A stretch of 64,000 bases of DNA from an uncultured virus (IMG/VR IMGVR_UViG_3300001605_000002) (IMGVR_UViG_3300001605_000002:1-64000); one strand, 5' to 3'. Shown: positions 1,079-25,394, counted from the first letter of the stretch. A program made the numbers and translations. The notes: generated by a model not told the origin, from the sequence alone.

Positions 1079-1920
1079 CCAGACAGGTAACGACCTACGA
1101 GCCGACCCTTCCGGGCTTGCTCCCGAACGTCGAGGCGGCGCGGCTCGCGGACAGCTTCCGGTTTATCATCGAGAGCCACGAGGCGCTCATCGACCGGATG
1201 CCGACCGTCGTCGAGCGGCAGATGCTCGCGTCGCGCTCGGCGTCGATCGACGCGGCGCTCGCGCCGCTCGGCCGCAATCGCGAAACTCACGACGCGGCGG
1301 CCGAGGCGCTCGCCGACTTGTTCGTCGCCTACGGCATCGGCCGGGCCGACAAAAAATCGGGGCAGACCGTGACCGTCTACCTCAAGCATCTCGAGGGCGT
1401 CCCGCTCTTCGCGCTCATCGCGGCCGTCGACGACGTCAAATACAATCGGGTGTACGACGTTCACCCGAGGACCGGCGACCGGATTCCGCTCGACAAGGAC
1501 TTCCCGCCGTCGTCGATAAGGCTCCGGTCGGTCGCCGAGAAGCACGTCTCGAAGCTCTACGAGGAGAAGCTCAAGTTCGACCGGGTCTTGAAGGCGAAGC
1601 GCCTGTTCGCTCCGCCGATCAACGAGGCCGAGCGCGCGAAGGTCCTCGCCGGTCTCCAGGAGTTGAGCCGCCAGCTCGGCGGTCCGGACCCGGCCGAGCA
1701 GCACGCCGCGCACGTCGCCTCGTGGCGACTTCATCTTGGGATGCTTCGCCGGAGCGAGGACATTCTCGGCGAGTACGCCGCGCGCGGCCTCGCGCCGGTT
1801 CGCGCCGGCCGCTACGCGGTCTCGCCGGAGCTCGCCCGAAAGCTCGGACCGCTTCGCCCTCTTCCCGCGCCGGAGTTCGACGACGCGCCCGGCGGTTGGA
1901 ATCGCGACGATGAGCGTTGA
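1075..1920 (+). CDS. hypothetical protein, helicase-loader position
   Basis: TTG start overlapping the initiator stop, preceded by AGGAGG; follows the initiator as lambda P follows O. Confidence 0.6.
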   Translation: MTRQVTTYEPTLPGLLPNVEAARLADSFRFIIESHEALIDRMPTVVERQMLASRSASIDAALAPLGRNRETHDAAAEALADLFVAYGIGRADKKSGQTVTVYLKHLEGVPLFALIAAVDDVKYNRVYDVHPRTGDRIPLDKDFPPSSIRLRSVAEKHVSKLYEEKLKFDRVLKAKRLFAPPINEAERAKVLAGLQELSRQLGGPDPAEQHAAHVASWRLHLGMLRRSEDILGEYAARGLAPVRAGRYAVSPELARKLGPLRPLPAPEFDDAPGGWNRDDER

Positions 1921-2040
1921 GGTCGCGCGCTCGCAATGCTATCGACTCGGGACCGGCGAGTGGTTCTTCCCGCTGGATTGGCCCCGGCTTGGTAACCCCG
2001 GATCGAGGGGCCGGGGCGGAAACGCTCCGGCCTTCGACCC

Positions 2041-2829
2041 GTGAGTGGCAAGGGCATAGGCGGGCATCAGTCGCCGGCCGCCGGCACCGTCGAGTGGCTC
2101 GTCGACCCGACGATCATCGAGAAGACCGGGCCCTACGACCTCGACCCCTGCGCGCCGATTGAGCAGCCCTACCGAACGGCGGCGCGGACCTTCACCATCG
2201 TCGACGACGGGCTCTCTCGCGCTTGGCCGAAGCGCGACCGCGTCTGGTTGAACGCGCCCTACGACGCGGTCGAGGCGTGGCTCCGCCGGCTCGCCGACCA
2301 CGGCCGAGGAACAGCGATCATCTTCGCGCGGACCGACACGGCGGCGTTCCACCGGCAGGTCTTCGAGCGGGCGACCGCCCTCTTGTGGATGGAAGGGCGG
2401 ACGTTCTTCCGGGTCGGTGAGGCGTTCTCGGTCGTCAAGACGCGGAAGACCTACCTCGCGGGCGACCGCGCGGCGGGCAACGCCGGCGGTCCGACGGTCC
2501 TCTGCGCCTACGGGATGGCCGACGCCGACGTCCTCGCCGGCTGCGGAATCCCCGGCCGGTTCGACGCGCTGCGCGTCCCGCGCTCGGTCCTCGTGTCGTT
2601 TTTTGCCACCGACAAGTCGGGCGGAAAAATCGACATGACCTGGCGAGAGGCACTCGACGCGTTCTTCGGCGACCGCGCCGACGACGTCGGGCTCGACGAG
2701 CTCTATCGCTACGCGCGCGGCCTGCCGATGGCCGCGACCAACCGGAACCCCGAGGCGAAGATCAGGCAGACGCTCGCGCGCGCCGGCTATGACCGGGTCG
2801 GCGGCGGAAAATGGAGGCGGCCGAAGTGA
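2041..2829 (+). CDS. phage Dam-like DNA N6-adenine methyltransferase with C-terminal winged-helix extension
   Basis: GIGGHQS..EWL, DLDPCA, VWLNAPY (NPPY-like), IFARTDT and GRTFF motifs; tail NRNPEAKIRQTL. Confidence 0.8.
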   Translation: MSGKGIGGHQSPAAGTVEWLVDPTIIEKTGPYDLDPCAPIEQPYRTAARTFTIVDDGLSRAWPKRDRVWLNAPYDAVEAWLRRLADHGRGTAIIFARTDTAAFHRQVFERATALLWMEGRTFFRVGEAFSVVKTRKTYLAGDRAAGNAGGPTVLCAYGMADADVLAGCGIPGRFDALRVPRSVLVSFFATDKSGGKIDMTWREALDAFFGDRADDVGLDELYRYARGLPMAATNRNPEAKIRQTLARAGYDRVGGGKWRRPK

Positions 2830-3137
2830 GCCCGAAGGACCCTCCGGTCGTCACATGGATCGAACGAATCGACAGCCACATGCTCGCGGGCGTCGCGAGC
2901 TGTTACGTCGTTCGCCACGGGTGCGTCTATGGGCTCTCGGTATTCGTCCTCGAGAAGGGCGGCCCCGCCGAGGGCGAGGGCTGGACTGGCGTCGACTACT
3001 GGCAGGCGAAGCGGAACGCGAAGGACCGGGCGGCCGCCCGGCTTGCCGAGGTCGTCGCGAAGGAATGCTTCGGGCGCCTTCCGCTCGTCGGCTCGCTCCG
3101 CGACGTCGGGGCAGACGGGGTCAACCTTCGATGGTGA
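2826..3137 (+). CDS. hypothetical protein
   Basis: GTG start overlapping the upstream TGA; in operon. Confidence 0.5.
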   Translation: MSPKDPPVVTWIERIDSHMLAGVASCYVVRHGCVYGLSVFVLEKGGPAEGEGWTGVDYWQAKRNAKDRAAARLAEVVAKECFGRLPLVGSLRDVGADGVNLRW

Positions 3138-3851
3138 TGAGCTTTCCACGGTCGGCGAAGGGAACGCCGGCGAACACGTCGCCGTCCGAGCAGGCGCGTC
3201 CGGGTCGTCGTCGACGCCGTGGGCCTCGGGCCCGCGTTCGGCGCCGACGTCCGGATCATTCATGAGCTCGCGCTCGGCGACCGCCGAATCGACATGCTGG
3301 TCGTCGGCGTCTCCGACCTGGTCGGCGTCGAGGTCAAGGGCCCGAAGGACAAGCTCGACGAGCGCCTGCGCGGGCAGATGTCGACGTTCTCGCTCTACCT
3401 GCCGGAAGTGTGGCTCGCGGTCGACAAGAAGTGGCGGGACTCGAACGCCTACCGATGGTGCCACGTCAACCGCCTCGCCATCGTCGACGGGGTCGCGGTC
3501 GAGGAGCCGCCGCGCGAGCGCCGCGACGCCATCCGCGACGACCTCTGCTGCTCGCGGCTTCTCGAGCTTCTGTGGAACGAGGAGACCATGCGGGTGGCGA
3601 AGCGCCGGCAGGTCCCGGCCGAGTACGCGCCGGGCAAATCGTTCCCGGTCCCACGCGTCAAGTCGATGCTCGCCCGGATGCTGACCGGCCACGAGATAGT
3701 CAAGGAAGTTTGCCTCGAGCTCCGGTCGCGGCCGCTGACCGGCATGGCGTCCGACGCGCCGCTCGACCGCGGCGCGAGCATCGCAGACGAAGGCCGGTTG
3801 CCCCCGGGCCCGCGTCAGACTATCAAAGCGGGGCCGAGGAAGAACCAATGA
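3131..3851 (+). CDS. PD-(D/E)XK nuclease-fold protein (sce7726/MmcB-like), 5' end apparently frameshifted
   Basis: IIHEL...RIDML...VEVKGPKDKLDERL motif in the 3219-3851 frame; probable start at 3131 or 3137 in another frame. Confidence 0.6.
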
Positions 3852-4657
3852 GCCTCCGACCCGTCAAGCCCGTCGAGTTGCCGCCCGGCGCGAAGCGCGC
3901 CTCGTTGACCGACTTCGGCGAGCCGCCGGAGCGCGTGTGGGTCGACCCGACCGAGCTCCTCATCGACGACGTCTACCAGCGCGACCTCAATCGCCGGTCG
4001 ATGGCGCTCATCGCGACGATGGTCGAGGGCTGGAAGTGGCGCCGGATGAAGACCCCCGATTGCGTTCGGGTCGGCGGGAAGCTCCACGTCATCGACGGCC
4101 AGCACACGGCGATTGCCGCCGCGACGCTCGGCATCAAGAAGATTCCGGTCGACGTCGTCGACGCGAAGACCGAGCTCGAGCGGGCCGACTCGTTCGTCTC
4201 CTACAACAAGAACCGGCTCACGATGTCGGCTCTCGACATTTACCGGGCGCAGGTCGGCGGCCGCGACCCGCTCGCGCTTAAAATCGACCGGGTCTGCAAG
4301 GCGGCGGGCGTCCGGCTCAAGGTCATTCACTTTCTTATTCAGCCGAAGGTCGGCGACACCGCCGCGATTTCGGCCATCAGGAAGCTCGTCGTTAAACGCG
4401 GCGACGAGCTCGCGACGAAGGTCCTCGGCGCGCTCGTCAAGGCGGGGCGCGCGCCGGTCTCGGCGGCCGAGATAACGGCGGCCGAGGAGTTCTACTTCGC
4501 CGGCGAGGGCGTCTCGGCGACGTCGCTCGCGGCCATCGCGCGGGAGCTCGGCCAAGAGGGTCTCCTCAAGTGCCAGGCCCGGGCGACGACCGAGCGAATC
4601 TCGACGAAGACCGCCATCGTCGACAAATATCGCGAGCTCGCGAAGAAGAGGAAGTGA
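3848..4657 (+). CDS. ParB/Srx-like N-terminal domain protein (DUF6551-like)
   Basis: LLIDDVYQRDL and VIDGQHT motifs; RBS GAGGAAGAACCAATG. Confidence 0.7.
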   Translation: MSLRPVKPVELPPGAKRASLTDFGEPPERVWVDPTELLIDDVYQRDLNRRSMALIATMVEGWKWRRMKTPDCVRVGGKLHVIDGQHTAIAAATLGIKKIPVDVVDAKTELERADSFVSYNKNRLTMSALDIYRAQVGGRDPLALKIDRVCKAAGVRLKVIHFLIQPKVGDTAAISAIRKLVVKRGDELATKVLGALVKAGRAPVSAAEITAAEEFYFAGEGVSATSLAAIARELGQEGLLKCQARATTERISTKTAIVDKYRELAKKRK

Positions 4658-5250
4658 TGACGAAGCCCAAGCCGAAGACCGATCAATGGGGCATCGTCCG
4701 CGGCGAACGCTGGCCGCTCGAGAAGATCCGGCCCTACCCGCGAAACTCGAAGACCCACCCGCCGGCGCAGGTCACGCTCCTCGCGCAAATCTTCAAGAAG
4801 TACGGGCCCGACCAAGACATCGTCGTCGACGAGGACCGGGTCATCCTCAAGGGCCACGGCCGATTGCTCGCCGCCTACGAGGCGAAGATGGGCGAGTACC
4901 CGGTCACACAACGGTTCGGGATGAGCGACGCGGACAAGCGCGCTATGCGAATCGCCGACAACCAGCTCCCGCTCCTCGGGGCCTGGGACAACGCGCTCGT
5001 CCAGGCGGAGATTTCGGAGCTCAAGCTCTCCGGGTACGACATTCAACTCCTCGGCTTCGGAGAGGCGCAGCTCGTCAACTTCGAGACGACGCCCGGACCG
5101 CCGGCGCAGTTTCCGACGTTCGACGAGAACATTCCGACCGCCCATCAATGCCCGCAGTGCGGCTACAAGTGGTCGGGCTCGTCGGCTCCGGCGGCCGAGC
5201 CGGAGGCCAAGCCGGCCAAGGCGAAGACCGCGTCGAAGAAACAGAAGTGA
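4657..5250 (+). CDS. ParB-like nuclease-domain protein with C-terminal zinc ribbon
   Basis: IRPYPRNSKTH, IVVDEDRVILKGHGRLLAA, RIADNQL and CPQCGYKW. Confidence 0.8.
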   Translation: MTKPKPKTDQWGIVRGERWPLEKIRPYPRNSKTHPPAQVTLLAQIFKKYGPDQDIVVDEDRVILKGHGRLLAAYEAKMGEYPVTQRFGMSDADKRAMRIADNQLPLLGAWDNALVQAEISELKLSGYDIQLLGFGEAQLVNFETTPGPPAQFPTFDENIPTAHQCPQCGYKWSGSSAPAAEPEAKPAKAKTASKKQK

Positions 5251-6806
5251 CCCTGTGGCTGTCCGTCCGTGACCCGAACTTCTACCGGAGCGACCGGGTC
5301 ACGCGCGATCGCCACGAGCGCCCGACGACGAACGAGCCGCTCCGGCGTTTCAATCTCGACGTCGAGCCGTCCCCGGTCATCATGGCGAACGGAATCCGGG
5401 CGGCATCGATCAAGGAACACTTCCTCGAGCTAGACGAGAACCCCTACGTGCCGGACCTCCAGAAGCCGCCCTACCGCGTCCCGTCGATGGCCGAGATAGC
5501 CAAGATCAAGCCGAACGGGCTCAAGGTCATCTCGACGTTCGCCGGCTGCGGCGGCTCGTCGCTCGGCTACCGGATGGCGGGCTTCAAGGTCTTGTGGGCG
5601 TCGGAGTTCATCGACGCGGCGCGCGAGGTCTACGAGCTTAACGCCGCGCGCGGGACCGTCGTCGACGGCCGCGACATCAGGGCGGTCACGCCGGCGGAGG
5701 TCCTCGCGGCGACCGGGCTCGAGCCAGGCGAGCTCGACGTCCTCGACGGGTCGCCCCCCTGCTCCTCGTTCTCGACGGCGGGCAAGCGGCAGGCCGGATG
5801 GGGAAAGACGAAGAAGTATTCTGACAAGGAGCAGCGGACCGATGACCTGTTCTTCGAGTACATCAGGATGGTCGACGGTCTTCGGCCGAAGGTCTTCGTC
5901 GCCGAGAACGTCTCCGGCCTCGTGAAGGGCTCGGCGAAGGGCTACTTCCTCCAAATCCTCGCGGCGATGAAGATCGCCGGCTCGGGCTACGACGTCGAGG
6001 CCCGGCTCCTCGACGCGCAGTGGCTCGGCGTCCCCCAGGCCCGCCAGCGGATCATCTTCGTCGGCGTCCGGAAGGACCTCGGCCTCAAGCCGGCGTTCCC
6101 GACGCCGCTCTCGTACCGCTACAGCGTGCGCGATGCGCTCCCGGACCTCGGCGGCGAACTCGTCCAGGGACCGGAGGTCGACCAGCGGAACGAAGGCCGC
6201 GTACTCTCGGGGAGCCCCGCGCCGACCGTCGTCGCCGGCGACGCGAAGAAGCGAACGCCGAGACAGTTCGAGGTCCGGATAGTCCCTGGCGATCGCGGCA
6301 ACCGGCGCCGGCGCGAAGAGGGAAAGCCGCACAGCCTCGAGGAGCCGCTCTCGTCGGTTCTCGCGGACGGCGGCCGCAACACGAACCGCGCTCAATTCAT
6401 GATCGAGACCGAGACCGACATCTCGCGCCAGGCCATCGGCCGGGAATACGACAAGCTCAATCCAGGGCAGGCGAGCGAGAAGTATTTCAGCCTCGTGCGG
6501 GCCGACGCCGCCGAGCCGTGCCCGACGGTGACGGCCGCCGGCGGGATGAACTCCGGCATCGCGTGCGTCGTTCACCCGACCGAGAAGCGGAAGTTTGCCA
6601 TCGCAGAGCTCAAGCGCATCTGCGCGTTTCCCGACGACTTCGCCTTGACCGGGACCTACGCGCAGCAATGGGAGCGGCTCGGTCGAGCCGTCCCCCCGGT
6701 AATGATGAGGGCTATCGCGACTACGGTCGCCGGGATTCTAGCGCGAGCTCCCGCCAAAACGTCCGAGCCCGCTCGACGTTCTTCGGGTCGTTCCACCAAA
6801 GGCTAA
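5247..6806 (+). CDS. DNA cytosine-C5 methyltransferase family, probable carboxymethyltransferase
   Basis: Motif I FAGCGG, IV GSPPCSSFS, VI ENV, VIII QARQR, IX ELKRICAFPD; motif X reads GRAVPP instead of the usual GNAVPP. Confidence 0.9.
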   Translation: MTLWLSVRDPNFYRSDRVTRDRHERPTTNEPLRRFNLDVEPSPVIMANGIRAASIKEHFLELDENPYVPDLQKPPYRVPSMAEIAKIKPNGLKVISTFAGCGGSSLGYRMAGFKVLWASEFIDAAREVYELNAARGTVVDGRDIRAVTPAEVLAATGLEPGELDVLDGSPPCSSFSTAGKRQAGWGKTKKYSDKEQRTDDLFFEYIRMVDGLRPKVFVAENVSGLVKGSAKGYFLQILAAMKIAGSGYDVEARLLDAQWLGVPQARQRIIFVGVRKDLGLKPAFPTPLSYRYSVRDALPDLGGELVQGPEVDQRNEGRVLSGSPAPTVVAGDAKKRTPRQFEVRIVPGDRGNRRRREEGKPHSLEEPLSSVLADGGRNTNRAQFMIETETDISRQAIGREYDKLNPGQASEKYFSLVRADAAEPCPTVTAAGGMNSGIACVVHPTEKRKFAIAELKRICAFPDDFALTGTYAQQWERLGRAVPPVMMRAIATTVAGILARAPAKTSEPARRSSGRSTKG

Positions 6807-7176
6807 CGCTCGACGGGTGAGGAGCGACGGCAACAAGCGCGCCGTCGCCGATTTCGTCCATCCATTCAAACAGTGGCCGCCGGTGGACGTAGAACGCCCG
6901 GGCCACGCCTAACCCGAGCAGGACCGTCCGGCGTTGCCGAAGTCGGCCCGTTAAGTTGCAAGCGCAAAGTCGAGCGACGATTCGCGGGAGGTCGTCGCCC
7001 TTCCCGGCTTTGCCAGGATAGTAGTCGAGCAGGTTCACGCGGTCGAACGCCGACAGGAACGCGGGCATCTCGAGGCCGCAAAGGGTCGCGAGCCGCGCCC
7101 CGGATTTACCGGAGAGCGGCTTGCGAGGGTCCGACCGACGAGAGGGAGCCTGGCCTATGATCAGCGGAAGGTTCAC
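6721..7176 (-). CDS. uracil-DNA glycosylase superfamily protein (short, family-4-like)
   Basis: IIGQAP...PLSGKSGARL motif 1, VLLG and PHPS motif 2; overlaps the MTase 3' end by 86 bp on the opposite strand. Confidence 0.75.
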   Translation of the reverse strand: MNLPLIIGQAPSRRSDPRKPLSGKSGARLATLCGLEMPAFLSAFDRVNLLDYYPGKAGKGDDLPRIVARLCACNLTGRLRQRRTVLLGLGVARAFYVHRRPLFEWMDEIGDGALVAVAPHPSSVSLWWNDPKNVERARTFWRELALESRRP

Positions 7177-7361
7177 AGGAACTCGAGCTCACCTTCGACA
7201 TCGCAGGTCCCCTCGACCTTCTCCTCGTTGTCGGCGTCTTCGGTTACGACGACCTTTCCGCCCTCGAGTATCGGTCGGAGGATTCGCTCGGCCTCTTCAC
7301 GGCTCGCGGCTTCGACCTCGAACGTGGCGAGGAGCGTCGCGTTAATCTTGTAGGTTTTCAT
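7173..7361 (-). CDS. small acidic hypothetical protein
   Basis: MKTYKINATLLATFEVEAASREEAER...; RBS GGAGAAGAGCCGATG. Confidence 0.65.
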   Translation of the reverse strand: MKTYKINATLLATFEVEAASREEAERILRPILEGGKVVVTEDADNEEKVEGTCDVEGELEFL

Positions 7362-7434
7362 CGGCTCTTCTCCGGAGCTTGATCGCTCCCCACGCGAGCC
7401 CCGGACGACCCGGGCGCTCGCGGACGGGAGCGGT

Positions 7435-7725
7435 CTAGTCGACGACCTCGACGTTCTCCTCCTGGAGCTCCGGCTTCGTGTTTGGGACCGGCTCGCAAAT
7501 CGACATCGCCGGCGAGAAGCTGACGTCGGGGAGGTCCGGGTTGTCGAGTGCGAGCCCCGAGACCTCGACGTCGCCGTCCGAATCATGGATGGCGGGCGAA
7601 CGATCCTTGAGCTCCCGGACGATTTGCGCGGCCTCGTCCTTGCTGCTCGCCTTAACGTAGACGGTCGCGCAGATCATAACGTCCTGGGAATAGACGTTGG
7701 TGAGCCTCGTTTTTTGCTCGGTCAC
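7435..7725 (-). CDS. acidic hypothetical protein
   Basis: GTG start, VTEQKTRL...ATVYVKASSKDEAAQIV; shares a V-x-A-x-S-x-(D/E)-E-A pattern with the downstream gene. Confidence 0.55.
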   Translation of the reverse strand: MTEQKTRLTNVYSQDVMICATVYVKASSKDEAAQIVRELKDRSPAIHDSDGDVEVSGLALDNPDLPDVSFSPAMSICEPVPNTKPELQEENVEVVD

Positions 7726-8028
7726 ATTAGCCCCCAATCGCCGTAGAACATCTCGACCCCCGTNGGGNCCCTTGCAAACGACGAGCTCGTTCGCCGTCGG
7801 TGCCGGACCCGGTCCCCATCGCATGGTGAGCGCGTTGTCGTCCCACTCCTCCCATCCGGTTAGGCGCTTCGCCTCCTCCTTTGCGGCCGCGTCGACGAAG
7901 AAGACGTTCGCCGGGTTGCCGTAGGTCTGATGGATTCCCTTAACGCCCTTCAACCGGGGCCCTTGCGGACCCCAGTTGTCGAGCTTCTCGTCGGGCGACT
8001 TCCGACCGTGGTGAATGTAGAGGTCCAT
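7722..8028 (-). CDS. hypothetical protein (contains Ns and an indel)
   Basis: MDLYIHHGRKSPDEKLDNWGPQGP...; ends FYGDWGLM-stop after a frame change at the N bases near 7764-7768. Confidence 0.55.
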
Positions 8029-8029
8029 C

Positions 8030-8500
8030 TCACGCGGCCTTCTTCGGCATCGTCGCGAACCAGACGACGTCGCCGGCGACGTTCTTGCTCGAGGTGAGCG
8101 TCGCTCCGACCTTCGCGGCGACCCGGCCGAGCGTCGACTTGCACTTCTTCCAGCCAAGCTTCTTGCAAATCGCCTTCTCGGTCGCGCCCTCGCCGCGTAG
8201 AGCCATGTCGATCATGATTGCCTGCTTCGAGCCCTCGCGGAGCCCGTCCGCGCGCGCCCCGGCCGGGGCCTTCGCCTTCTTCTTCGCCGCCGGCTTGCGC
8301 TTCGTGGCGGCCTTCTTCGTCGGTTTCTTCACGGTGTTCTCCTGGGTTGCCGCGGGCGGCGCCGGCGGCGGGGTTAGGGTCGGTTCCGCGGTCGAGCGCG
8401 GACGCTCGACCCGGTTCGTGCCGGAGGCTCTTCCGGGGACGGCGAGCGCCTCGCGGAAGGCGCGGCGTTGGAGCTCCTTCGGTCCGAGGGGCTTCGCCAT
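8030..8500 (-). CDS. DUF3489-like basic DNA-binding protein
   Basis: Lys/Ala-rich linker, then REGSKQAIMIDMALRGEGATEKAICKKLGW; alternative GTG start at 8332. Confidence 0.6.
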   Translation of the reverse strand: MAKPLGPKELQRRAFREALAVPGRASGTNRVERPRSTAEPTLTPPPAPPAATQENTVKKPTKKAATKRKPAAKKKAKAPAGARADGLREGSKQAIMIDMALRGEGATEKAICKKLGWKKCKSTLGRVAAKVGATLTSSKNVAGDVVWFATMPKKAA

Positions 8501-8503
8501 CGG

Positions 8504-8908
8504 CTATTCCCCGGCCAACTGCGCGGCGAGCTCGACGAACTTCCGGCGGGTCTTCGCGCTCTTGATGCCGGAGAACGACCGGACGATCGAGAGCCCGTCG
8601 CTCGTCGCGAGGAAGTCGGCGACGATGGACGGCGAGACGGCGACGTCGTCGACGATCATCTGCTTCGAGCGTTCGCCGACCACCGGGGCGTTCTCGAAGA
8701 AGAACGCGACCGGGACCTGGAGGATGGTCGAGATGTGCTGGAGCCGGGACGCGCCGATTCGGTTCGTGCCCTTCTCGTACTTCTGGACCTGCTGGAACGT
8801 CAGGCCGAGGGCGTCGCCGAGCTTCTCCTGCGACATCGAGAGCATCATCCGGCGCATCCGGACGCGGGCGCCGACGTGCTTGTCGACCGGGTTGGGAGTT
8901 TTCTTCAT
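8504..8908 (-). CDS. XRE-family HTH regulator, rhizobial PraR/PhrR-like
   Basis: PNPVDKHVGARVRMRRMMLSMSQEKLGDALGLTFQQVQKYEKGTNRIGASRL. Confidence 0.9.
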   Translation of the reverse strand: MKKTPNPVDKHVGARVRMRRMMLSMSQEKLGDALGLTFQQVQKYEKGTNRIGASRLQHISTILQVPVAFFFENAPVVGERSKQMIVDDVAVSPSIVADFLATSDGLSIVRSFSGIKSAKTRRKFVELAAQLAGE

Positions 8909-8984
8909 CGTGGTTCTTCCTTTCAATCGGCGGGACGACCCCACCCCGTCGCCGGCGGCCGAAGCCACCGGCGCTAGGCTGCGG

Positions 8985-9224
8985 TCATCGAAGCCAGAGG
9001 CACTCGAAATCGGGGTTCTGGTAGAGGTCGGCCGACGTGCTCGCGAGGATGACGCCGTCGGAATGACGGCGGCCGATTGACCAAATCCAAGCGGTCTTCT
9101 CGAGGTCGCAGTAGTCGACGTCGTCGACGAACCGCTCGAGGACGTAGTAGTCGCCCTCTCGTTTGTTCTTGCTTAGGTCGACCGCGTCGGTGGCGGCGAC
9201 CTTCCGATGCATCGCGTTAGTCAT
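8985..9224 (-). CDS. hypothetical protein
   Basis: 79 aa; strong RBS GGAGGAAGAACCAATG. Confidence 0.7.
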   Translation of the reverse strand: MTNAMHRKVAATDAVDLSKNKREGDYYVLERFVDDVDYCDLEKTAWIWSIGRRHSDGVILASTSADLYQNPDFECLWLR

Positions 9225-9301
9225 TGGTTCTTCCTCCTTCGACGCGGTGCTGCGCCCCGTCGGGGAGAGCTCGCGCCCTCCCCGCTAGGTCGCGGTCCTG
9301 A

Positions 9302-10453
9302 CTAGGCGGCTTCGGCGAGCCGCGCGAAGTCTTGACGCGGGAGCTCGATAACACGGCCGCCGATGTACTCGAGGTCGGTTGCCCGGTCGTAGTCTTCGAG
9401 GTCCTGGGCGGCCCTGGTGATTGCCGCGTGCAATCCGTACTGGCTTAGGGAGCGCCCCTGAATCAAGTGCTTGAGGACGGACTCGCGCTCGACGTCGGAG
9501 AGGTCGAAGTGTTTCGCCGTGACCTCGACGACCTTCTCGACCTTGCCGGTGATTTGGACGCCGGCAGTCGCCGCGATTTGATCGAGGCGCTTGCCGATGA
9601 CCTTCTCGTCGAAGGCCGACGCGACGACGTCGCGGACCTGGAGCCAGAGCGCCTCCATCGTCTTCCGCTTCGTGAGCGACGACATGATCGAATCGAGGTC
9701 GGCGACGTCCATTCCTTCGGTAAGACGATGGCGGGCGCCGACGTGGGTCCGCTTCATCCCGCCCTTGGCGAAGAGCGCCAAGTTCGTACAGGCCTTGGTA
9801 TAGACGCCGGTCTCGACGACGAGACGGCCGAAGCCGACCTCAGAGTTCGACAGGATGATCGCCGGCGCGCAGGTATCGAAGAACGTGTGCGTGCCGTCCC
9901 CCATCTTGTGGCCGACGGGCACGTCGCGGAAGAGCCGGGTGTCGATCGCCTTGATATAGAGGCGCTTCTCGGTAATTTCGCAGCTAACGATTTCGAGCTT
10001 CCGGTCATTCAAGAGCGGGAGGGTCGCGTTCGCAAAGTCATGGTTGTCGAGCGGCTGGAACTTGTCGGAGAGGAACGCCCGGGCGCGATTGTCGAGCGTC
10101 CGAACCATCCGGGCCTCGGGCTTCTTCTTGAACCAAGTCCGGACGTTGTCGACGAGCAGCTCGGGGGCCTCGAGCAGCATCCGGTCGTAATACTTCTTCG
10201 GGATGCCGACGGTCTCGGCGACCTGCTCGTGTGCGATTGGCGAGAGCGGGAAGCGGCCGGTGTTCTCGAGGACGATGGCCGGTTTTCCGAAGTTCGGATT
10301 GTAGCGGTCGGCGCCGTCGTCCTTGTGGGGGCGGCCGGTCAAGTCGAGCGTGAAGTCGACGCCCTTGCCGGTCGTCGCGACGTAGTCCTTCTTCGTCTCA
10401 CTCTGCCGCTCGATTTCGGCTGCGAGCTGCGAAAGGGTCTTTCCGGTTTTCAT
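9302..10453 (-). CDS. DUF932/DUF945-family protein
   Basis: MKTGKTLSQLAAEIERQ, MVRTLD..ARAFLSDKF, IILSNSEVG, ACTN, DYDRATDLE. Confidence 0.75.
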   Translation of the reverse strand: MKTGKTLSQLAAEIERQSETKKDYVATTGKGVDFTLDLTGRPHKDDGADRYNPNFGKPAIVLENTGRFPLSPIAHEQVAETVGIPKKYYDRMLLEAPELLVDNVRTWFKKKPEARMVRTLDNRARAFLSDKFQPLDNHDFANATLPLLNDRKLEIVSCEITEKRLYIKAIDTRLFRDVPVGHKMGDGTHTFFDTCAPAIILSNSEVGFGRLVVETGVYTKACTNLALFAKGGMKRTHVGARHRLTEGMDVADLDSIMSSLTKRKTMEALWLQVRDVVASAFDEKVIGKRLDQIAATAGVQITGKVEKVVEVTAKHFDLSDVERESVLKHLIQGRSLSQYGLHAAITRAAQDLEDYDRATDLEYIGGRVIELPRQDFARLAEAA

Positions 10454-10522
10454 TGGTTCTTCTCCTTGGCGCGGGACTGCACCCCGGAGCGTCCGGCCGA
10501 GGCCGGGCGCTCGAGGCTGCGG

Positions 10523-10672
10523 TTAGGCCGGGAGGCCGACGGCAACGAGGCGACCGTCTTTCAGGAAGTAGACGCGGTCGGTGAACTCCGGCGTCTCGAC
10601 GACGAGCTTCTTGAACGGCGTCGCGAAGAACTCGGGAGTGGTGATGATGAGCTTGAGGCGAGGAGCGGTCAT
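10523..10672 (-). CDS. small hypothetical protein, 49 aa (not in ORF track)
   Basis: MTAPRLKLIITTPEFFATPFKKLVVETPEFTDRVYFLKDGRLVAVGLPA; RBS AGGAAGAACCAATG. Confidence 0.65.
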   Translation of the reverse strand: MTAPRLKLIITTPEFFATPFKKLVVETPEFTDRVYFLKDGRLVAVGLPA

Positions 10673-10693
10673 TGGTTCTTCCTGTTCGTTCGT

Positions 10694-11212
10694 TTAGACG
10701 GCGGCCGGGCGCTGGTTGTGCATCCCGTAGGTCGAGTGAGCGGGCGCGGNGTACTCGAGCTCGGCGGCGAACCACCGCGAGAGTTCGTTCACCCGATGAT
10801 TCGAGACGCCGGCGTCGCGCCACTCGCGACGGTCGTTATCAGAGAAAATTCCGTCGAGGGTGTCGCGGTAGTAAATTCCGAGGACCGGGGCGAGGAGAGC
10901 GAACGCGAGCTCGAGGTCGTCGACCTCAATCGCGCGGCGAAGAAGGCCCGTCTCGGGAAGACCGGCGAGCGAACCGAGGCGCGAGTCGATAATACGGCGA
11001 GCGATGCCAAGGTCGGGAACGTGGGTGACCGAACCGTCGTCCCACTGAACTCCGAACGGGCCGACGTAGCGGTCGGCGACCTCGAAGCCGACGTCGAACA
11101 TCGCAATCGAGACGTCGCGATATTTGATCGCGGAATAGTGGTGTTCGTGTTCGACGGTCATGTCGTCGAAGAGGTCGACGCGGCGGCCGTCGATCATAAG
11201 CTCGGTCTTCAT
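10694..11212 (-). CDS. hypothetical protein, first gene of the leftward operon
   Basis: MKTELMIDGRRV...; RBS AGGAGAAGAACCGATG. Confidence 0.7.
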   Translation of the reverse strand: MKTELMIDGRRVDLFDDMTVEHEHHYSAIKYRDVSIAMFDVGFEVADRYVGPFGVQWDDGSVTHVPDLGIARRIIDSRLGSLAGLPETGLLRRAIEVDDLELAFALLAPVLGIYYRDTLDGIFSDNDRREWRDAGVSNHRVNELSRWFAAELEYXAPAHSTYGMHNQRPAAV

Positions 11213-11239
11213 CGGTTCTTCTCCTGTTGCCGGGAAATA

Positions 11240-11300
11240 TCCCGCGTGCAATATAGAGGGTGCGGCGCGGCGAATGTACAATGCGAAATTGCACGAAAAA
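11240..11300. promoter_or_regulatory. divergent promoter region with inverted repeat
   Basis: AT-rich; minus strand TTGTACA...CTATAT resembles the alphaproteobacterial sigma70 consensus; CGTGCAAT (11245) and ATTGCACG (11288) are inverted copies. Confidence 0.5.
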
Positions 11301-11315
11301 CGCGAGGAACATCAG

Positions 11316-11987
11316 GTGGCTAAGAGCACCAAAACCCTAGCCGTTCCGAAGGAATGGACCTTCCGCAGCCGGGAGGTTGCCGAGGGCTTCGACTCGCACG
11401 TTCGCGAGCAACTCCCCTGGTACGACATTGCGACGGGAATCGTCTCGCATCTCGCCCGCTCCTATGTTCCGAAGGGCGGCGTCGTCGTCGACGTCGGCGC
11501 GTCGACCGGCAACGTCGGTCGCGCCATCGAGGAGACGCTCAAGGCGCGCGACGCCGAGCTCGTGTCGATCGACGCGTCGCCGGCGATGGTCGACGTTTAT
11601 CGGGGGCCGGGTCAGCTCATCGTCGTCGAGGCGGAGAAGTTCGACTTCGCGTCGAAGAAGCCCGACCTCATCGTCTGCTTCCTCTCGCTGATGTTCGTTC
11701 CGGTCTCGCAACGCCTGGCGCTCGTCGAACGGATGAAGGCCGCGCTTTCGCCGGGCGGCGCCGTCGTCGTCTTCGACAAGATGATTCCGAACCCGGGTTA
11801 TCTCGGGACCGTCGCCTTCCGGCTCACGCTCGCGGCCAAATACGAGAACGGCGCGCTACCGGCGGAAATCATCGCGAAGGAGCTCTCCATCGCCGGGCTC
11901 CAGCGGCCTATGAGCACGGCCGAGCTCCCGGGCTTCGTCGAGGTCTTCCGGTTTGGCGACTTCGCCGGGTTCGTCTTCGAGAACTAG
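11316..11987 (+). CDS. cmoA: CmoA-like carboxy-S-adenosylmethionine synthase / class I SAM-fold protein
   Basis: WTF..EVAEGFDSHVREQLPWY, VDVGASTG, IDASPAM, LMFVP..R, LSPGGAVVVFDK, KYENG...EIIAK and FGDFAG are collinear with E. coli CmoA motifs. Confidence 0.75.
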   Translation: MAKSTKTLAVPKEWTFRSREVAEGFDSHVREQLPWYDIATGIVSHLARSYVPKGGVVVDVGASTGNVGRAIEETLKARDAELVSIDASPAMVDVYRGPGQLIVVEAEKFDFASKKPDLIVCFLSLMFVPVSQRLALVERMKAALSPGGAVVVFDKMIPNPGYLGTVAFRLTLAAKYENGALPAEIIAKELSIAGLQRPMSTAELPGFVEVFRFGDFAGFVFEN

Positions 11988-12193
11988 ACGGCGAAGATCG
12001 CGGCCCATCCCAGGACGACCGCGACGAAGAAGGCGACGGCGACGAGCCGGACGCTCTCCTCGCAAGCGAACCTGATCCAGGACGGGGCGGCGAAGGCCTC
12101 GCCGCTCTGCTCGAGCGAGATCCGGAGGGCGACGGCGGCCTCGGCCTCTCGCGTCCAGCGCGACACTTCGACGGCGGAATGTTCGGGGGACAT
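11984..12193 (-). CDS. small membrane protein
   Basis: C-terminal hydrophobic segment; GAGGAG RBS. Confidence 0.5.
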   Translation of the reverse strand: MSPEHSAVEVSRWTREAEAAVALRISLEQSGEAFAAPSWIRFACEESVRLVAVAFFVAVVLGWAAIFAV

Positions 12194-12249
12194 GCTCAGC
12201 TCCTCGTTTGTCGGGAGCTCGAGCGTAGGTCCGGTCGGTTAACGAACCG

Positions 12250-12606
12250 TCAAGCGGGCTCGTCCTCGTAGGTCTCGTCGCGAATGGGGTCGACGGCGTC
12301 AACCGGTTGGAGCGGCGCGGTGCCGAGCGGCGACGCCACGCCGACGAAACCCGCGCGGACGAGCGCGTCTGCGTACTCGCCGAGGATGATCGCGAGGACC
12401 ATCCGGCCGTCGTCGGTCATGAAGGTCTTCGAGGCGAATTGCTTGCGGTTGGGGCGAAGGAGGCCGAGCCTTATGAGGACCGCGCGGGCTCCCTTCTCCT
12501 CGGAGATGAAGACCGGGACCGGAATCTCGCGGCCACCGTCGATGTGCTTTATCAAGAAGTTGCGCTGCTGCGGTGACAGCACCCCGACGACGCGCTGATG
12601 GTTCAT
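12250..12606 (-). CDS. hypothetical protein
   Basis: 118-aa ORF with GAGGGG RBS. Confidence 0.6.
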   Translation of the reverse strand: MNHQRVVGVLSPQQRNFLIKHIDGGREIPVPVFISEEKGARAVLIRLGLLRPNRKQFASKTFMTDDGRMVLAIILGEYADALVRAGFVGVASPLGTAPLQPVDAVDPIRDETYEDEPA

Positions 12607-12764
12607 TTGTCTTGCCCCTCGAAGTTATCCCCAGGAATCGAAGGAGTACCCTAGCGGGTTTTTTCCCGCCGCGTCCACCGAAGGGGATGGCGGCGAATCG
12701 CTCGCCTGAGCTATACCGGGGAGCCCGTTACCAGCACCCCACCTGAACAATTCTAGGCCGCCAA

Positions 12765-13400
12765 ATGAGCGACTTCGACCCATACGCCGTCCTCGGCCTC
12801 GAGCGGACGGCGACGCCCGCCGAGATTCGGGCGGCCTACCGGCGGCTCTCGAAGGAGAAGCACCCCGACGCCGGCGGCTCGGCCGAGGCCTTCGCCGAAA
12901 TCGGCCTCGCCCACAACATCCTGATGGACGAGTCGCGCCGGGCGACCTTCGACCGCGAAGGGAAGGTCACCGAGGACAAGCCGGACAACGCCAGGGCGGG
13001 GGCCATTCAGCTCATCGACGCGTTCATCGGCGGGGTGGTCGCCGCCTACGCGACGAACTTCGACCCGTACCTCGACCCGCGCCGGCGCGACCTGGTCGCC
13101 GAGTTTCGTCAGCAGATGAACGAGCAGATCAGCGCGCAGACGGCCGAGATTTTTCAGACCGAGAAGGCGATCAAGTTCGTCATCGATTTCAAGGGCCGGT
13201 TCTCGGGGAAGGACCCCGCGAACCCCATCGAGCGGAGCCTCGAGCGGCAAATCGCGAAGGCCCGCAGCGTTCTCGATTCGATGAAGGAGCAAATCGAGCA
13301 CCGGCGGCGCGCCCTCGAAATCATCGACGGCTACACGTTCCGGGCCGACTCCGCCGACGCGTCTCACGAGTTCTTCCTCCTGACGGGCCTCCGCCGATGA
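12765..13400 (+). CDS. J-domain (DnaJ-like) protein
   Basis: DPYAVLGL...EIRAAYRRLSKEKHPD...AF.EI..AH.IL.D.SRR..FD; coiled-coil C-terminus. Confidence 0.9.
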   Translation: MSDFDPYAVLGLERTATPAEIRAAYRRLSKEKHPDAGGSAEAFAEIGLAHNILMDESRRATFDREGKVTEDKPDNARAGAIQLIDAFIGGVVAAYATNFDPYLDPRRRDLVAEFRQQMNEQISAQTAEIFQTEKAIKFVIDFKGRFSGKDPANPIERSLERQIAKARSVLDSMKEQIEHRRRALEIIDGYTFRADSADASHEFFLLTGLRR

Positions 13401-13912
13401 TCCTTCCAATCCTCCAGCTTCCGGACCCGCGCCTCATCGCCGTCTGCGAGGAGGTCTCGGGCATCGGCGGTCTCCTGCCGCCGGCGCCGGGCTTCGTCGT
13501 GTTGATAAACGACATGCGCGAGACGATGCTCCAGGCGAAGGCCCTCGGGCTCGCGGCACCGCAGGTCGGGTACACGAGCCGGATCATAGTTTTGTCGGTC
13601 AAACTGACCGGCTCGCCGCACTTCGCGATGATCAACCCGGTCGTCGTCGAGAAGTCGGAGAGAACCGAGAAGGGCGTCGAGGAGTGCCTCTCGTCGCCGG
13701 GCGCGCGCATGATGATCACGCGGCCGCACAGCGTCCGGGTCAAGTTCTGGAATCGCGACGGCGACCTTCGCTTCTACGACGCGCACGGTCTTCCGGCCCG
13801 GGTCATCCAGCATGAAATCGACCACCTGAACGGAGTCATCCTCGGTCATCGGTGGAAGAGCGCGGCCGAGATAGCCGCGAGCGGCGAAAAACAAAGGGGG
13901 GAAATATCCTAA
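13397..13912 (+). CDS. def: peptide deformylase
   Basis: GLAAPQVG, EECLS (EGCLS variant) and QHEIDHLNG. Confidence 0.92.
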   Translation: MILPILQLPDPRLIAVCEEVSGIGGLLPPAPGFVVLINDMRETMLQAKALGLAAPQVGYTSRIIVLSVKLTGSPHFAMINPVVVEKSERTEKGVEECLSSPGARMMITRPHSVRVKFWNRDGDLRFYDAHGLPARVIQHEIDHLNGVILGHRWKSAAEIAASGEKQRGEIS

Positions 13913-23035: not shown

Positions 23036-23382
23036 GCGTTGCCAACGTCGAGTTTCTGAACATCGCCGGCGCGCCGGTCGCCGAGGGCGAGAAACCCGCC
23101 CGGTTCTCTTTCCGTTGCGTCGGACACAATCGCGGCAAGGACGTCCGGCTCCCGGGCACGAAGTGCGAGAACCTCCTCCTCGCCGAGGGCCCGCACACGG
23201 CCGCTCACGGAATCAAGCGCGACCCTCAAGGCCAGAACGGCGGCCGCCCTCAATGGGATTGGGACGGCAACCGCGAGAACCCGACGCTCTCTCCGTCGAT
23301 CAATTGCGAGGGCCATTGCGGCTGGCACGGCTACGTTCGCGGGGGACGATGCGTCGAGGTCAACGGGACGGACTCGCGATGA
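23032..23382 (+). CDS. second DUF6527-like protein
   Basis: WDWDGNRENPTLSPSINC..CGWHGYVRGG. Confidence 0.65.
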   Translation: MSVANVEFLNIAGAPVAEGEKPARFSFRCVGHNRGKDVRLPGTKCENLLLAEGPHTAAHGIKRDPQGQNGGRPQWDWDGNRENPTLSPSINCEGHCGWHGYVRGGRCVEVNGTDSR

Positions 23383-25394
23383 CCGTCCAGGCCGCCGGCA
23401 TCGCGCTCAAGGCCCCCGACGGCCGGATCCTGTTCTTGCGTCGCTCGGGGACGGGCGACCACGCCGGCGAGTGGTGCTTCCCCGGTGGCGGCGTCGAGCC
23501 GACCGACCAGAACTCGCGCCAGGCCGCGCGCCGCGAACTCTTTGAGGAGACCGGCCTCCAGAGCTTGGGGTCCTTGCATCTACTCGACCGCTCGACCTCG
23601 AGCGAGGGCGTCGACTTCTCGACGTTCGTCGAGGCGACCGACGAGGCGCGCGACCCGAAGTTGAACGACGAGCACGACGCGTTCGTATGGGCCGACGCAA
23701 AAAATCTGCCGAAACCTCTACACCCCGGCGTCGAAGCCGTGCTATCGAACGAAAAGATGCAGACCCAGGTCGCCATCCTCGCCCAAGACCGCGCCGGCCG
23801 CGTGCCGGGAGTGACGCTTCTCGGCGGCTATGAGAAGGTCGCGCTCGCCCTCGACGAAAAGGTCATCAAGCTCGCGTTCGACCGGGCCCCCGAGGATTCG
23901 GTCCGGGACAAGAGCAAGGACGGCCACCTTCACATCAGCAAGGCGCACATCAGCAAGGCGGACGTGAACCCCTACGTCGGCCGCGAGATTCCGCGCTGGA
24001 AGCAACTCGGGCTCGACCCCGACAAGGTCTACATGCTCCTCCGCGACCCGGAGGAGATGGCGAAGGCCGTCGACACGTTCAACCGCCTACCGATTCTCAA
24101 GAAGCACGTCCCGGTGACGTCGAAGAAGCACCCGCACGAACTCGTGGTCGGCGCGACCGGCTCCGACGCGGCCTTCGACGGCGGCTATCTCGACAACAGC
24201 TTGGCGGTTTGGGAAGAGGGAGCCATCGGCGACGTCGAGGCCGACCGGAAGCGTCAGCTCTCGTCCGCGTACCATTACGATGCGGAGATGACTCCCGGAG
24301 AATTTAATGGTACGCGTTTTGACGGCAGAATGCGCAACATCGTCGGCAACCACGTTGCCTTAGTTAGCGAAGGACGAGCCGGTGATGACGTCATCGTCGG
24401 CGACAGCAAGGGAAACCTCAAAATGGCCACCAAGAAAATCGTTCTCAGCCGCCTCGCTGCCGTTGCGGTCGGCGCGCTCGCCGCTCACCTGGCACCGAAG
24501 CTCGCGCAGGACGCGAAGTTCGGAATCGCCGAGTTGACCCCGCTCTTCAAGGGCATCACTCCCAAGAATTTCAAGACCAAGAGCGCCGGCATAATCGCCG
24601 AGCTCACGAAGGCGACCGAAGACCTCTTGGCGCAGGACGCGTCGATTGAGGACCTGGGCGCGCTCCTCGATACGCTCGGCTCGGCCGAGGTCGCCGAGGC
24701 CAAGGACGCCGACCCGGCGGCCGCCACCGCCACCACCGCTCCGGTCGTCGAGACCGACGACACGGCCATCGACGCGGACCCCGTCGCGAAGATCATGGAG
24801 TTCTGCAAGGGCAAGCTCTCGCCCGAGGACATGGCCGCGCTCGAGACCCTGACCTCCGCCGGCATCGCGGGCGACGAGGAAGACGACGACGCCGCGAAGG
24901 CCGCCAAGGAGAAGGCGGCGAAGGAAAAAATCGCCAAGGACGAGAAGGACAAGGAAAACATGATCACGAAGCCGGCGATGGACGCGGCCCTCAAAAAGAC
25001 CCGCGAAGACGTCAAGGCCGAGATGCGCGCCGAGAACGCCGCGCTTAACGAGGCCCTCAAAATCGCGAAGCCCTACGTCGGCGACATCGCGATCGCGATG
25101 GACAGCGCGCAGGCGGTCTACGAGCACACGCTCAAGGCGATCAAGCCCGACCTCGACCTGACCGACGTTCACCCGTCGGCCTACAAGGCCATTCTCACGG
25201 CCATCCCGGTCCCCGGCGCCGAGAAGGGCCGGAGCAAGTCGCCGCGCATCGCGATGGACGCGAAGGCCGGTCAAGGGCTTCGCCGAACGCTTCCCGGGCA
25301 CCGAGAACATCAGCATCGGCTAACGGCCCCAGGCGCGTCGCAACGAAACGGTTCAACAGGAGACGATCATGAGCAACTTTCAGAGCCAGGTTAA
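23379..25394 (+). CDS. NUDIX hydrolase fused to DUF2213 prohead protease/scaffold (true stop probably 25323 after an indel)
   Basis: Nudix box GGGVEPTDQNSRQAARRELFEETGL; DUF2213 motifs ISKADVNPY.G.EIP, QLSSAY, RNIVGNHVALV.EGRAG; charged scaffold C-terminus. Confidence 0.85.
   Translation: MTVQAAGIALKAPDGRILFLRRSGTGDHAGEWCFPGGGVEPTDQNSRQAARRELFEETGLQSLGSLHLLDRSTSSEGVDFSTFVEATDEARDPKLNDEHDAFVWADAKNLPKPLHPGVEAVLSNEKMQTQVAILAQDRAGRVPGVTLLGGYEKVALALDEKVIKLAFDRAPEDSVRDKSKDGHLHISKAHISKADVNPYVGREIPRWKQLGLDPDKVYMLLRDPEEMAKAVDTFNRLPILKKHVPVTSKKHPHELVVGATGSDAAFDGGYLDNSLAVWEEGAIGDVEADRKRQLSSAYHYDAEMTPGEFNGTRFDGRMRNIVGNHVALVSEGRAGDDVIVGDSKGNLKMATKKIVLSRLAAVAVGALAAHLAPKLAQDAKFGIAELTPLFKGITPKNFKTKSAGIIAELTKATEDLLAQDASIEDLGALLDTLGSAEVAEAKDADPAAATATTAPVVETDDTAIDADPVAKIMEFCKGKLSPEDMAALETLTSAGIAGDEEDDDAAKAAKEKAAKEKIAKDEKDKENMITKPAMDAALKKTREDVKAEMRAENAALNEALKIAKPYVGDIAIAMDSAQAVYEHTLKAIKPDLDLTDVHPSAYKAILTAIPVPGAEKGRSKSPRIAMDAKAGQGLRRTLPGHREHQHRLTAPGASQRNGSTGDDHEQLSEPG

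Follow-up and report, generated by a model that had tools for sequence, protein, structure and literature searches.

A complete phage genome encoding a CmoX-type transferase and a divergent CmoA-like protein: a candidate cytosine carboxymethylation system

Carboxymethylation of cytosine by a phage system was first shown by experiment in December 2025, in the cyanophage S-B43 (Yang et al., Nat Commun 2025, PMC12783734). SpCmoX of this Synechococcus phage is a DNA cytosine C5-carboxymethyltransferase that depends on carboxy-S-adenosylmethionine (Cx-SAM). Its crystal structure (PDB 8YF3) has Arg350 in place of Asn304 of M.HhaI, in contact with the carboxymethyl group of Cx-SAM; the wild-type enzyme accepts Cx-SAM and not S-adenosylmethionine (SAM), and the R350N variant accepts neither cofactor (PMC12783734). 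SpCmoA of the same CmoA-CmoX-CmoY system is a proven Cx-SAM synthase, with a turnover number (kcat) ten times that of the Escherichia coli enzyme, EcCmoA (PMC12783734). With an SPPC motif and R350 as search criteria for CmoX, the same authors counted 5,615 CmoX and 4,257 CmoA candidates, and 1,660 sequences with ParB-domain neighbours, from IMG/VR and other sources (PMC12783734). The DNA described here, the first 64,000 nucleotides (the window) of the 72,593-bp uncultured virus record IMGVR_UViG_3300001605_000002, carries another member of this system and not a new one: an intact transferase gene of the CmoX type and, on the same strand, a divergent CmoA-like gene. An original prediction, made from the sequence alone, had read the two as a cytosine carboxymethylation system and had pointed to a natural CmoA/CmoX pair of a cyanophage. 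The reading is supported by the diagnostic residues of the transferase, by SpCmoX as its nearest solved structure, by the co-occurrence of the two genes in related loci and by the absence of an amide ligase, each of which is taken up below. The genes in question are as follows.

5247-6806, plus strand: CmoX-type DNA cytosine C5-carboxymethyltransferase (predicted activity), 519 amino acids (aa); open frame from GTG at 5247 to the stop at 6804-6806
6684-6686, plus strand: codon CGA of Arg480, found where ordinary C5-methyltransferases have the motif X Asn; context ggt-CGA-gcc-gtc-ccc
11316-11987, plus strand: divergent CmoA-like gene, predicted Cx-SAM synthase, 223 aa; a single plus-strand gene with minus-strand genes on both sides

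The transferase gene is intact, as the original prediction had claimed together with its motif X sequence, ERLGRAVPP. Besides this motif, the open frame encodes motif I (FAGCGG), motif IV (GSPPCSSFS, residues 168 to 176), ENV and QARQR. The protein matches the Pfam family DNA_methylase (PF00145) with an E value of 4e-52 over profile positions 1 to 321 of 324, and the NCBIfam family dcm (TIGR00675) with an E value of 8e-45 and 153.9 bits, above the cut-off of 100.65. The best match among solved structures is SpCmoX (8yf3_A; E value of 1e-68, 235 bits), followed by M.HaeIII with an E value of 1e-22. In the HMMER alignment, ERLGRAVPP lies over ERVGRMVPP of SpCmoX and IGNAVP of M.HaeIII, and the arginine, confirmed in the sequence as the predicted CGA codon, falls on Arg350 of the former and on the Asn of the latter. 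Motif IV aligns with GSPPCSAFS of 8YF3, which contains the catalytic Cys (S95 to C98 of SpCmoX), and SPPC, ENV and QxRxR are invariant in alignment A4. Both features used in the published CmoX search, SPPC and an arginine at the R350 position, are thus present in the window transferase, and a CmoA-like gene in the same genome, a further feature of CmoX membership, is present at 11316-11987. These features support the assignment of the protein to the CmoX type, with a predicted activity to match. The engineered carboxymethyltransferase M.MpeI N374K likewise has a basic residue for the motif X Asn (PMC12783734), whereas the window enzyme occurs naturally, carries Arg where the engineered one has Lys, and belongs to another C5-methyltransferase lineage.

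Compared with SpCmoX, the window transferase is longer, with an N-terminal extension of about 70 residues and a variable region, lying between motif VIII and the C-terminal motifs, that gains about 130 residues. The N-terminal residues are conserved, with tblastn matches that start at residue 1 in three relatives (L007, L087 and L013; L numbers denote loci of the sets described below). Because of these matches and of a GTGA overlap with the stop codon of the preceding ParB-like gene, 5247 is preferred as the start over the internal ATG at 5382.

Among named phages, the closest CmoX is that of Streptomyces phage TurkishDelight, with 52% identity over 83% of the query (tblastn; 55% in alignment A4). 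Genes gp121 to gp125 of this phage encode, in order, ParB, ParB, a methyltransferase, a glutamine-amidotransferase/Asn-synthase-like protein and a methyltransferase, and share with the window the ParB-ParB-CmoX order with overlapping starts and stops. In contrast to the window, an amidotransferase-type ligase lies between CmoX and CmoA in TurkishDelight, its CmoA keeps an H-D motif that is treated below, and all the genes are on one strand. The closest named-phage relative of the CmoA-like protein, with 45% identity and the same KELS...QRP signature, belongs to Moraxella phage Mcat8 (the unannotated pair AKI27362/AKI27361). Its CmoX has the GR motif and no ligase occurs in the stretch read, but its CmoX and CmoA genes share one operon, where they overlap, immediately before the terminase genes.

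The CmoA-like gene lies where the original prediction had placed it, in an open frame with a GTG start and GAGGAA seven bases upstream. CmoA (NF011995) is its best NCBIfam family, with an E value of 1.4e-18 that puts it ahead by about 10 orders of magnitude, and the best solved relative by sequence is CmoA 4GEK (E value of 5.5e-19), with unrelated methyltransferases next at about 1e-7. The protein also matches PHROG 4752 (E value of 2e-52). An AlphaFold2 (AF2) model built from 36 relatives, with a predicted local distance difference test score (pLDDT) of 82.4, shows the class I methyltransferase core and a lid of the CmoA type, the lid being modelled at low confidence. Its nearest structures are those of CmoA (4IWN, 4GEK and 1IM8), which occupy Foldseek ranks 1 to 5 with an E value of 2e-15 and a template modeling (TM) score of 0.71. 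By both sequence and fold, the best solved relative is therefore E. coli CmoA (4GEK, 4IWN), the Cx-SAM synthase of tRNA cmo5U synthesis. The SAM-contact columns of E. coli Tyr39, Asp62, Gly64 and Asp89 are kept, and Asp154-Lys155 align with E. coli Glu164-Lys165; the list of contact residues is that of PMC3663124, which reports Asp as the sole alternative to Glu164 in CmoA. Unlike the bacterial tRNA pathway, the phage presents no CmoB-like partner in Pfam scans of its genome. Relatives of the protein carry the Joint Genome Institute (JGI) label 'tRNA (cmo5U34)-methyltransferase'.

The original prediction had entered one caveat for this protein, namely that the residue matching E. coli Arg199 is Glu. 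The substitution is real in all alignments, with Glu189 in this column in HMMER, MAFFT and a larger alignment. In EcCmoA, no side chain other than that of Arg199 touches the Cx-SAM carboxylate, with which it forms a salt bridge (PMC4482062, PMC3663124). The caveat applies equally to SpCmoA, which aligns with EcCmoA without gaps between the "EI" and "AGF" anchors and has Glu in the Arg199 column, with an Arg four residues later. Since SpCmoA is a proven synthase, Arg199 is not required for activity and marks the CmoA of the bacterial tRNA pathway, so that Glu189 does not disqualify the window gene.

The co-occurrence of GR-type transferases with CmoA homologues, on which the original prediction depended, was followed in viral contigs. 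A search with the single CmoA-like protein gave no relative, and an alignment of 36 relatives as query gave 80 IMG/VR loci with 49 to 71% identity, at which partner genes were detected by scripted tblastn. A methyltransferase of the window type is present in 73 of the 80 loci, and its motif X reads G-R-[A/S]-VPP in every one of the 73; SPPC is seen in 72, the remaining one being cut by the contig end. No such transferase was found in seven loci (L008, L019, L021, L032, L033, L034 and L065), and in three of these (L019, L021 and L034) the contig extends only a short way upstream of CmoA. In 32 of the 80 loci the pair has an asparagine-synthetase-like ligase, of the S-B43 or TurkishDelight type, beside it, an arrangement that speaks for a carboxylate on the transferred group. 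A second set consists of 52 loci with a CmoA-like relative in species-representative genomes, where a GR-type CmoX occurs within the 8 kb searched in only 10; two more have degenerate copies and one has a distant canonical GN enzyme.

Named phages served as a small control (nine phages). Arginine is found at motif X in all four that have a CmoA (S-B43, TurkishDelight, Mcat8 and PaBG) and in none of the five that do not, where the residue is Met in four and Asn in Aphanizomenon phage CL131; the five whole records (FpV9, LoVEphage, phi18:3, a Rhodobacteraceae phage and CL131) gave no CmoA match at an E value of ≤0.01. An SPPC-type C5-methyltransferase clade with Met at motif X (G-M-S-VPP) was seen in Flavobacterium phage FpV9, Bacteroides LoVEphage, Cellulophaga phi18:3 and the Rhodobacteraceae phage (L139 to L142).

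The activities of both enzymes, their cofactor, the product and its biological role are inferred from these features, and we place at roughly 80% the probability that the phage modifies DNA by a two-enzyme pathway of the kind published for CmoA and CmoX. In this pathway the CmoA-like protein would convert SAM to Cx-SAM, with prephenate as the CO2 donor by analogy. In the transferase, the Cys of SPPC would attack C6 of cytosine and the carboxymethyl group would be moved to C5, with Arg480 holding the carboxylate of the cofactor. The expected product is 5-carboxymethylcytosine (5cxmC) in phage DNA, and its likely role would be to protect that DNA from host restriction.

The transferase gene belongs to a tightly coupled plus-strand operon, and its 3' end meets a convergent gene for a protein like those of the uracil-DNA glycosylase (UDG) superfamily. 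The neighbouring features are as follows.

3219-3851, plus strand: unknown gene
3848-4657, plus strand: ParB-like gene 1, 269 aa; ATG at 3848 overlaps the previous stop (ATGA); PHROG 1033 'ParB-like partition protein', E value of 4.8e-10
4657-5250, plus strand: ParB-like gene 2, 197 aa; PHROG 620 ParB-like, E value of 2.7e-36; TGATG overlap with ParB-like gene 1 and GTGA overlap with CmoX
6721-7176, minus strand: UDG-superfamily-like protein, 151 aa; PF03167, E value of 5e-5 (just below the cut-off); PDB 3IKB, E value of 5e-4; PHROG 12275

ParB-like gene 1 also matches Pfam DUF6551 with an E value of 1.8e-5, under the cut-off, and a homologue was seen only in L087. ParB-like gene 2, to judge from the overlapping start and stop, is translationally coupled to CmoX, and it has a homologue in 68 of the 73 CmoX-bearing viral loci. 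ParB-domain genes beside CmoX are a likeness to the published system, as is the presence of a CmoA homologue in the same genome.

The CmoX and CmoA-like genes are separated only by an opposite-strand block, as if once adjacent, and this part of the original prediction agrees with what is seen in relatives. Positions 6721 to 11281 hold eight genes, all on the minus strand, which include the UDG-like gene, a DUF3489 gene and an XRE-type helix-turn-helix (HTH) gene. In most relatives the order is CmoX-(CmoY)-CmoA or CmoA-CmoX, contiguous and on one strand, and in L012 one small minus-strand gene (DUF3489) lies between CmoX and CmoA. Only the closest relatives, of about 70 kb (L087, L007, L009 and L013), have the minus-strand insert, of 4.5 to 5.3 kb, in common with the window; in them ParB-like gene 2 and CmoX are followed by the UDG-like gene, convergent, and DUF3489, with CmoA 3.6 to 5.3 kb on. 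Of these, L087 shows 79% CmoA identity and is a 68-kb contig binned with a Rhizobiales metagenome-assembled genome (MAG), while L007 and L013 have a ligase directly after CmoX. The relatives thus fit a history in which the minus-strand cassette would have split a once contiguous module.

The UDG-like protein reads GQAPS and HPS, and its gene overlaps the 3' end of CmoX. It was considered as a functional partner and rejected. The gene occurs in 8 of 132 loci (80 viral and 52 genome loci), convergent right after CmoX or CmoY in seven of the eight (L007, L009, L010, L013, L014, L015 and L087), with the eighth, L019, on a contig that ends before CmoX. All are close relatives, and the linkage, which may be no more than lineage synteny, is not functional evidence.

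No amide ligase is evident in the phage, in line with the original prediction and in contrast to S-B43, which has CmoY. The Asn_synthase profile (PF00733), which matches all 14 control genomes, gave no match at an E value of ≤0.1 in the complete 72,593-bp record; tblastn of the whole genome with SpCmoY and TurkishDelight gp124 gave a best E value of 0.044; and an ATP-dependent ligase domain appeared in none of the 88 distinct frames scanned with Pfam. A ligase is likewise absent from the relatives L009 and L087 and from 42 of the 73 CmoX-bearing viral loci, many of which are short contigs. With no CmoY in a complete genome, the carboxymethyl group would probably stay free and the predicted end product is free 5cxmC, so that the locus was filed as CmoA-CmoX only.

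The alternative that survives best accepts both activities but makes 5cxmC only an intermediate, which an unrecognised phage or host enzyme would modify further to give a hypermodified virion base. It finds a precedent in S-B43, whose virion DNA was found to contain only the glycine amide and no free 5cxmC (PMC12783734), and it gains from the ligases that directly follow CmoX in L007 and L013. About half of the genes of the window phage are without a family, and a radical SAM gene is present at 53282-54091, both of which count in its favour. Against it stand the three ligase searches and the many related loci in which the pair likewise occurs with no ligase. We regard this alternative as unlikely, though substantial enough to be kept in mind, and retain free 5cxmC as the predicted final base.

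Several observations weigh against the assignment of the pair to the published pathway, and most concern the CmoA-like protein. It stays well under the curated CmoA cut-offs, with 67.3 bits versus 285 for NF011995 and 61.2 versus 193.3 for TIGR00740, and a genome-wide CmoA profile search gave 60.2 bits, again under the cut-off. Its identity is only 23% to SpCmoA and 25% to EcCmoA. The Foldseek margin is narrow, with 8e-14 for the CysG/BelI methyltransferases versus 2e-15 for CmoA, and the lid of the AF2 model (residues 161 to 200) has a pLDDT of 54 to 66. On the side of the transferase, the GC specificity of SpCmoX is not transferable to an enzyme whose variable region exceeds that of SpCmoX by about 130 residues. 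Finally, 4.5 kb separate the CmoA-like gene from CmoX, and the gene forms a transcription unit by itself, whereas S-B43 has one operon. A promoter and terminator scan of positions 1900 to 13000 found one promoter-like site versus a mean of 0.6 in shuffled sequence and six terminator-like sites versus 8.5; because the scan is no better than shuffled, the transcription units are drawn from orientation and overlaps only.

Further points of this kind come from the clade to which the CmoA-like protein belongs. An exhaustive search of representatives gave 1,410 clusters at an E value of ≤1e-3 and 122 at ≤1e-30, and a clade alignment was made of 105 full-length representatives (205 to 262 aa, from 150 listed) with the E. 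coli, S-B43, TurkishDelight and Mcat8 proteins. The differences fall at positions of the lid. Column 199 is Glu in 92 of the 105 and Asp in 8. Arg stands in place of E. coli Asn at column 179 in 84 and in place of E. coli Leu at column 207 in 72. The clade has T-L-A instead of the H-D that is found in E. coli (HHDFK), S-B43 (HYDYK) and TurkishDelight (SHDWK). By this alignment the window protein is an ordinary representative of a separate phage clade and not a damaged copy.

The clade is also found with a transferase of another type and is not exclusive to CmoX. Thirty-four CmoX-less genome loci share the order ParB, a ParB-methyltransferase fusion of about 500 aa, a 148-aa protein (PHROG 32036), CmoA-like, small terminase, large terminase and portal. 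The fusion is composed of a ParB N-terminal domain and a class I methyltransferase domain (PHROG 5475), and its methyltransferase part occurs in 38 of the 132 loci, never together with a GR-type CmoX. Examples among L090 to L131 and the other genome loci are the following.

L093, 6071-7585: ParB-methyltransferase fusion
L090, 6035-7537: ParB-methyltransferase fusion

The synthase clade therefore works with one or the other of two transferases, and co-occurrence with CmoX does not extend to the clade as a whole. The fusion is absent from the window, and since the window has CmoX and no fusion, the alternative partner does not weaken the reading proposed for it. The ParB-fused protein may, from its domains and setting, be a second kind of Cx-SAM-using DNA transferase; Yang et al. 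state that their search gave no non-C5 candidates (PMC12783734).

A clade with its own conserved Arg pair, feeding either CmoX or a ParB-fused methyltransferase, could make a cofactor other than Cx-SAM, or Cx-SAM from a donor other than prephenate, and here lead to virion DNA whose final base bears a free acidic adduct at C5. We know of no natural genome in which such a final base has been observed, and this proposal is speculative and distinctly unlikely. In a second alternative to the preferred pathway, all is as described except that the CmoA-like enzyme makes another SAM derivative or uses a non-prephenate donor, and the base then differs from 5cxmC. The clade lacks the Arg199 and H-D shared by E. 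coli, S-B43 and TurkishDelight (with the exception of Arg199 in S-B43) and has conserved Arg residues of its own, and this, together with the low profile scores and the second, unrelated transferase type in 38 of the 132 loci, favours such a change of cofactor or donor. However, the partner transferase keeps the carboxylate-binding Arg in 73 of 73 cases, the window CmoX is 52% identical to that of TurkishDelight, which pairs with an H-D-type CmoA, and ligases of the asparagine-synthetase-like type, which need a carboxylate, stand beside the clade in 32 of the 80 viral loci. SpCmoA is moreover fully active without Arg199 (PMC12783734). A different cofactor or donor is thus improbable, and Cx-SAM made from prephenate remains the preferred reading.

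An ordinary SAM-dependent 5-methylcytosine (5mC) methyltransferase beside an unrelated RNA or small-molecule methyltransferase would account for two generic methyltransferase domains outside a single operon and for the tRNA label that JGI gives to relatives, but it is highly improbable, given that the motif X Arg is the published determinant for Cx-SAM and wild-type SpCmoX rejects SAM (PMC12783734), that the pair co-occurs in 73 of 80 loci with Arg in all 73 and control phages with no CmoA have no such Arg, and that Pfam scans of the genome show no CmoB-like tRNA partner.

The locus adds one more complete phage genome to a published system with 5,615 candidate transferases. A complete genome with no ligase makes the phage a clean candidate for whether free 5cxmC is a final base in natural DNA, and the divergent synthase clade bears on how far the CmoA annotation can be extended.

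The record is classed by IMG/VR as having direct terminal repeats, with a CheckV completeness of 100%; its first 40 bases are found again at 70,495, so that the repeat would measure about 2.1 kb. N bases occur at 7764, 7768, 10750 and 26412 in the window and at 69880 outside it, none of them within the CmoX or CmoA-like gene. The GC content is about 65%. GcrA is an alphaproteobacterial regulator, and a GcrA-like cell-cycle regulator gene at genome positions 68220-68675 (plus strand, outside the window; PF07750, E value of 4e-19) points to an alphaproteobacterial host. The phage also encodes the DUF3489 gene in the minus-strand block after CmoX, and its nearest relatives are found in Rhizobiales, Azospirillum and Brucella/Ochrobactrum sequences. 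It is a high-GC phage, probably of an alphaproteobacterial host.

Four genomes that hold relatives of the phage or prophage module, two of them MAGs, have neither CmoA nor CmoB above the curated cut-offs (0 of 4 for each), and these are hosts of the relatives and not of the window phage. As a hint only, the host of the phage may supply no Cx-SAM, and on this showing a phage-borne synthase makes sense.

The genome is heavily invested in DNA modification, with three further DNA methyltransferase-like genes in addition to those described. These are listed with other features at a distance from the pair, and with two genes that follow closely after the CmoA region, for a DnaJ-domain protein and a peptide deformylase; positions are those of the window except where the genome is named.

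2041-2829, plus strand: Dam-like gene; PF05869, E value of 6e-6; PHROG 111
55402-56307, minus strand: N6_Mtase gene, directly after a 579-aa ParB-HTH protein
69775-70500 of the genome, plus strand: N6_N4_Mtase gene; PF01555, E value of 4e-14
53282-54091, minus strand: radical SAM gene; PF04055, E value of 3e-8
23115-25394, plus strand: 759-aa NUDIX-DUF2213 fusion, within the head-morphogenesis block
12765-13400, plus strand: DnaJ-domain protein
13397-13912, plus strand: peptide deformylase; PF01327, E value of 5e-41

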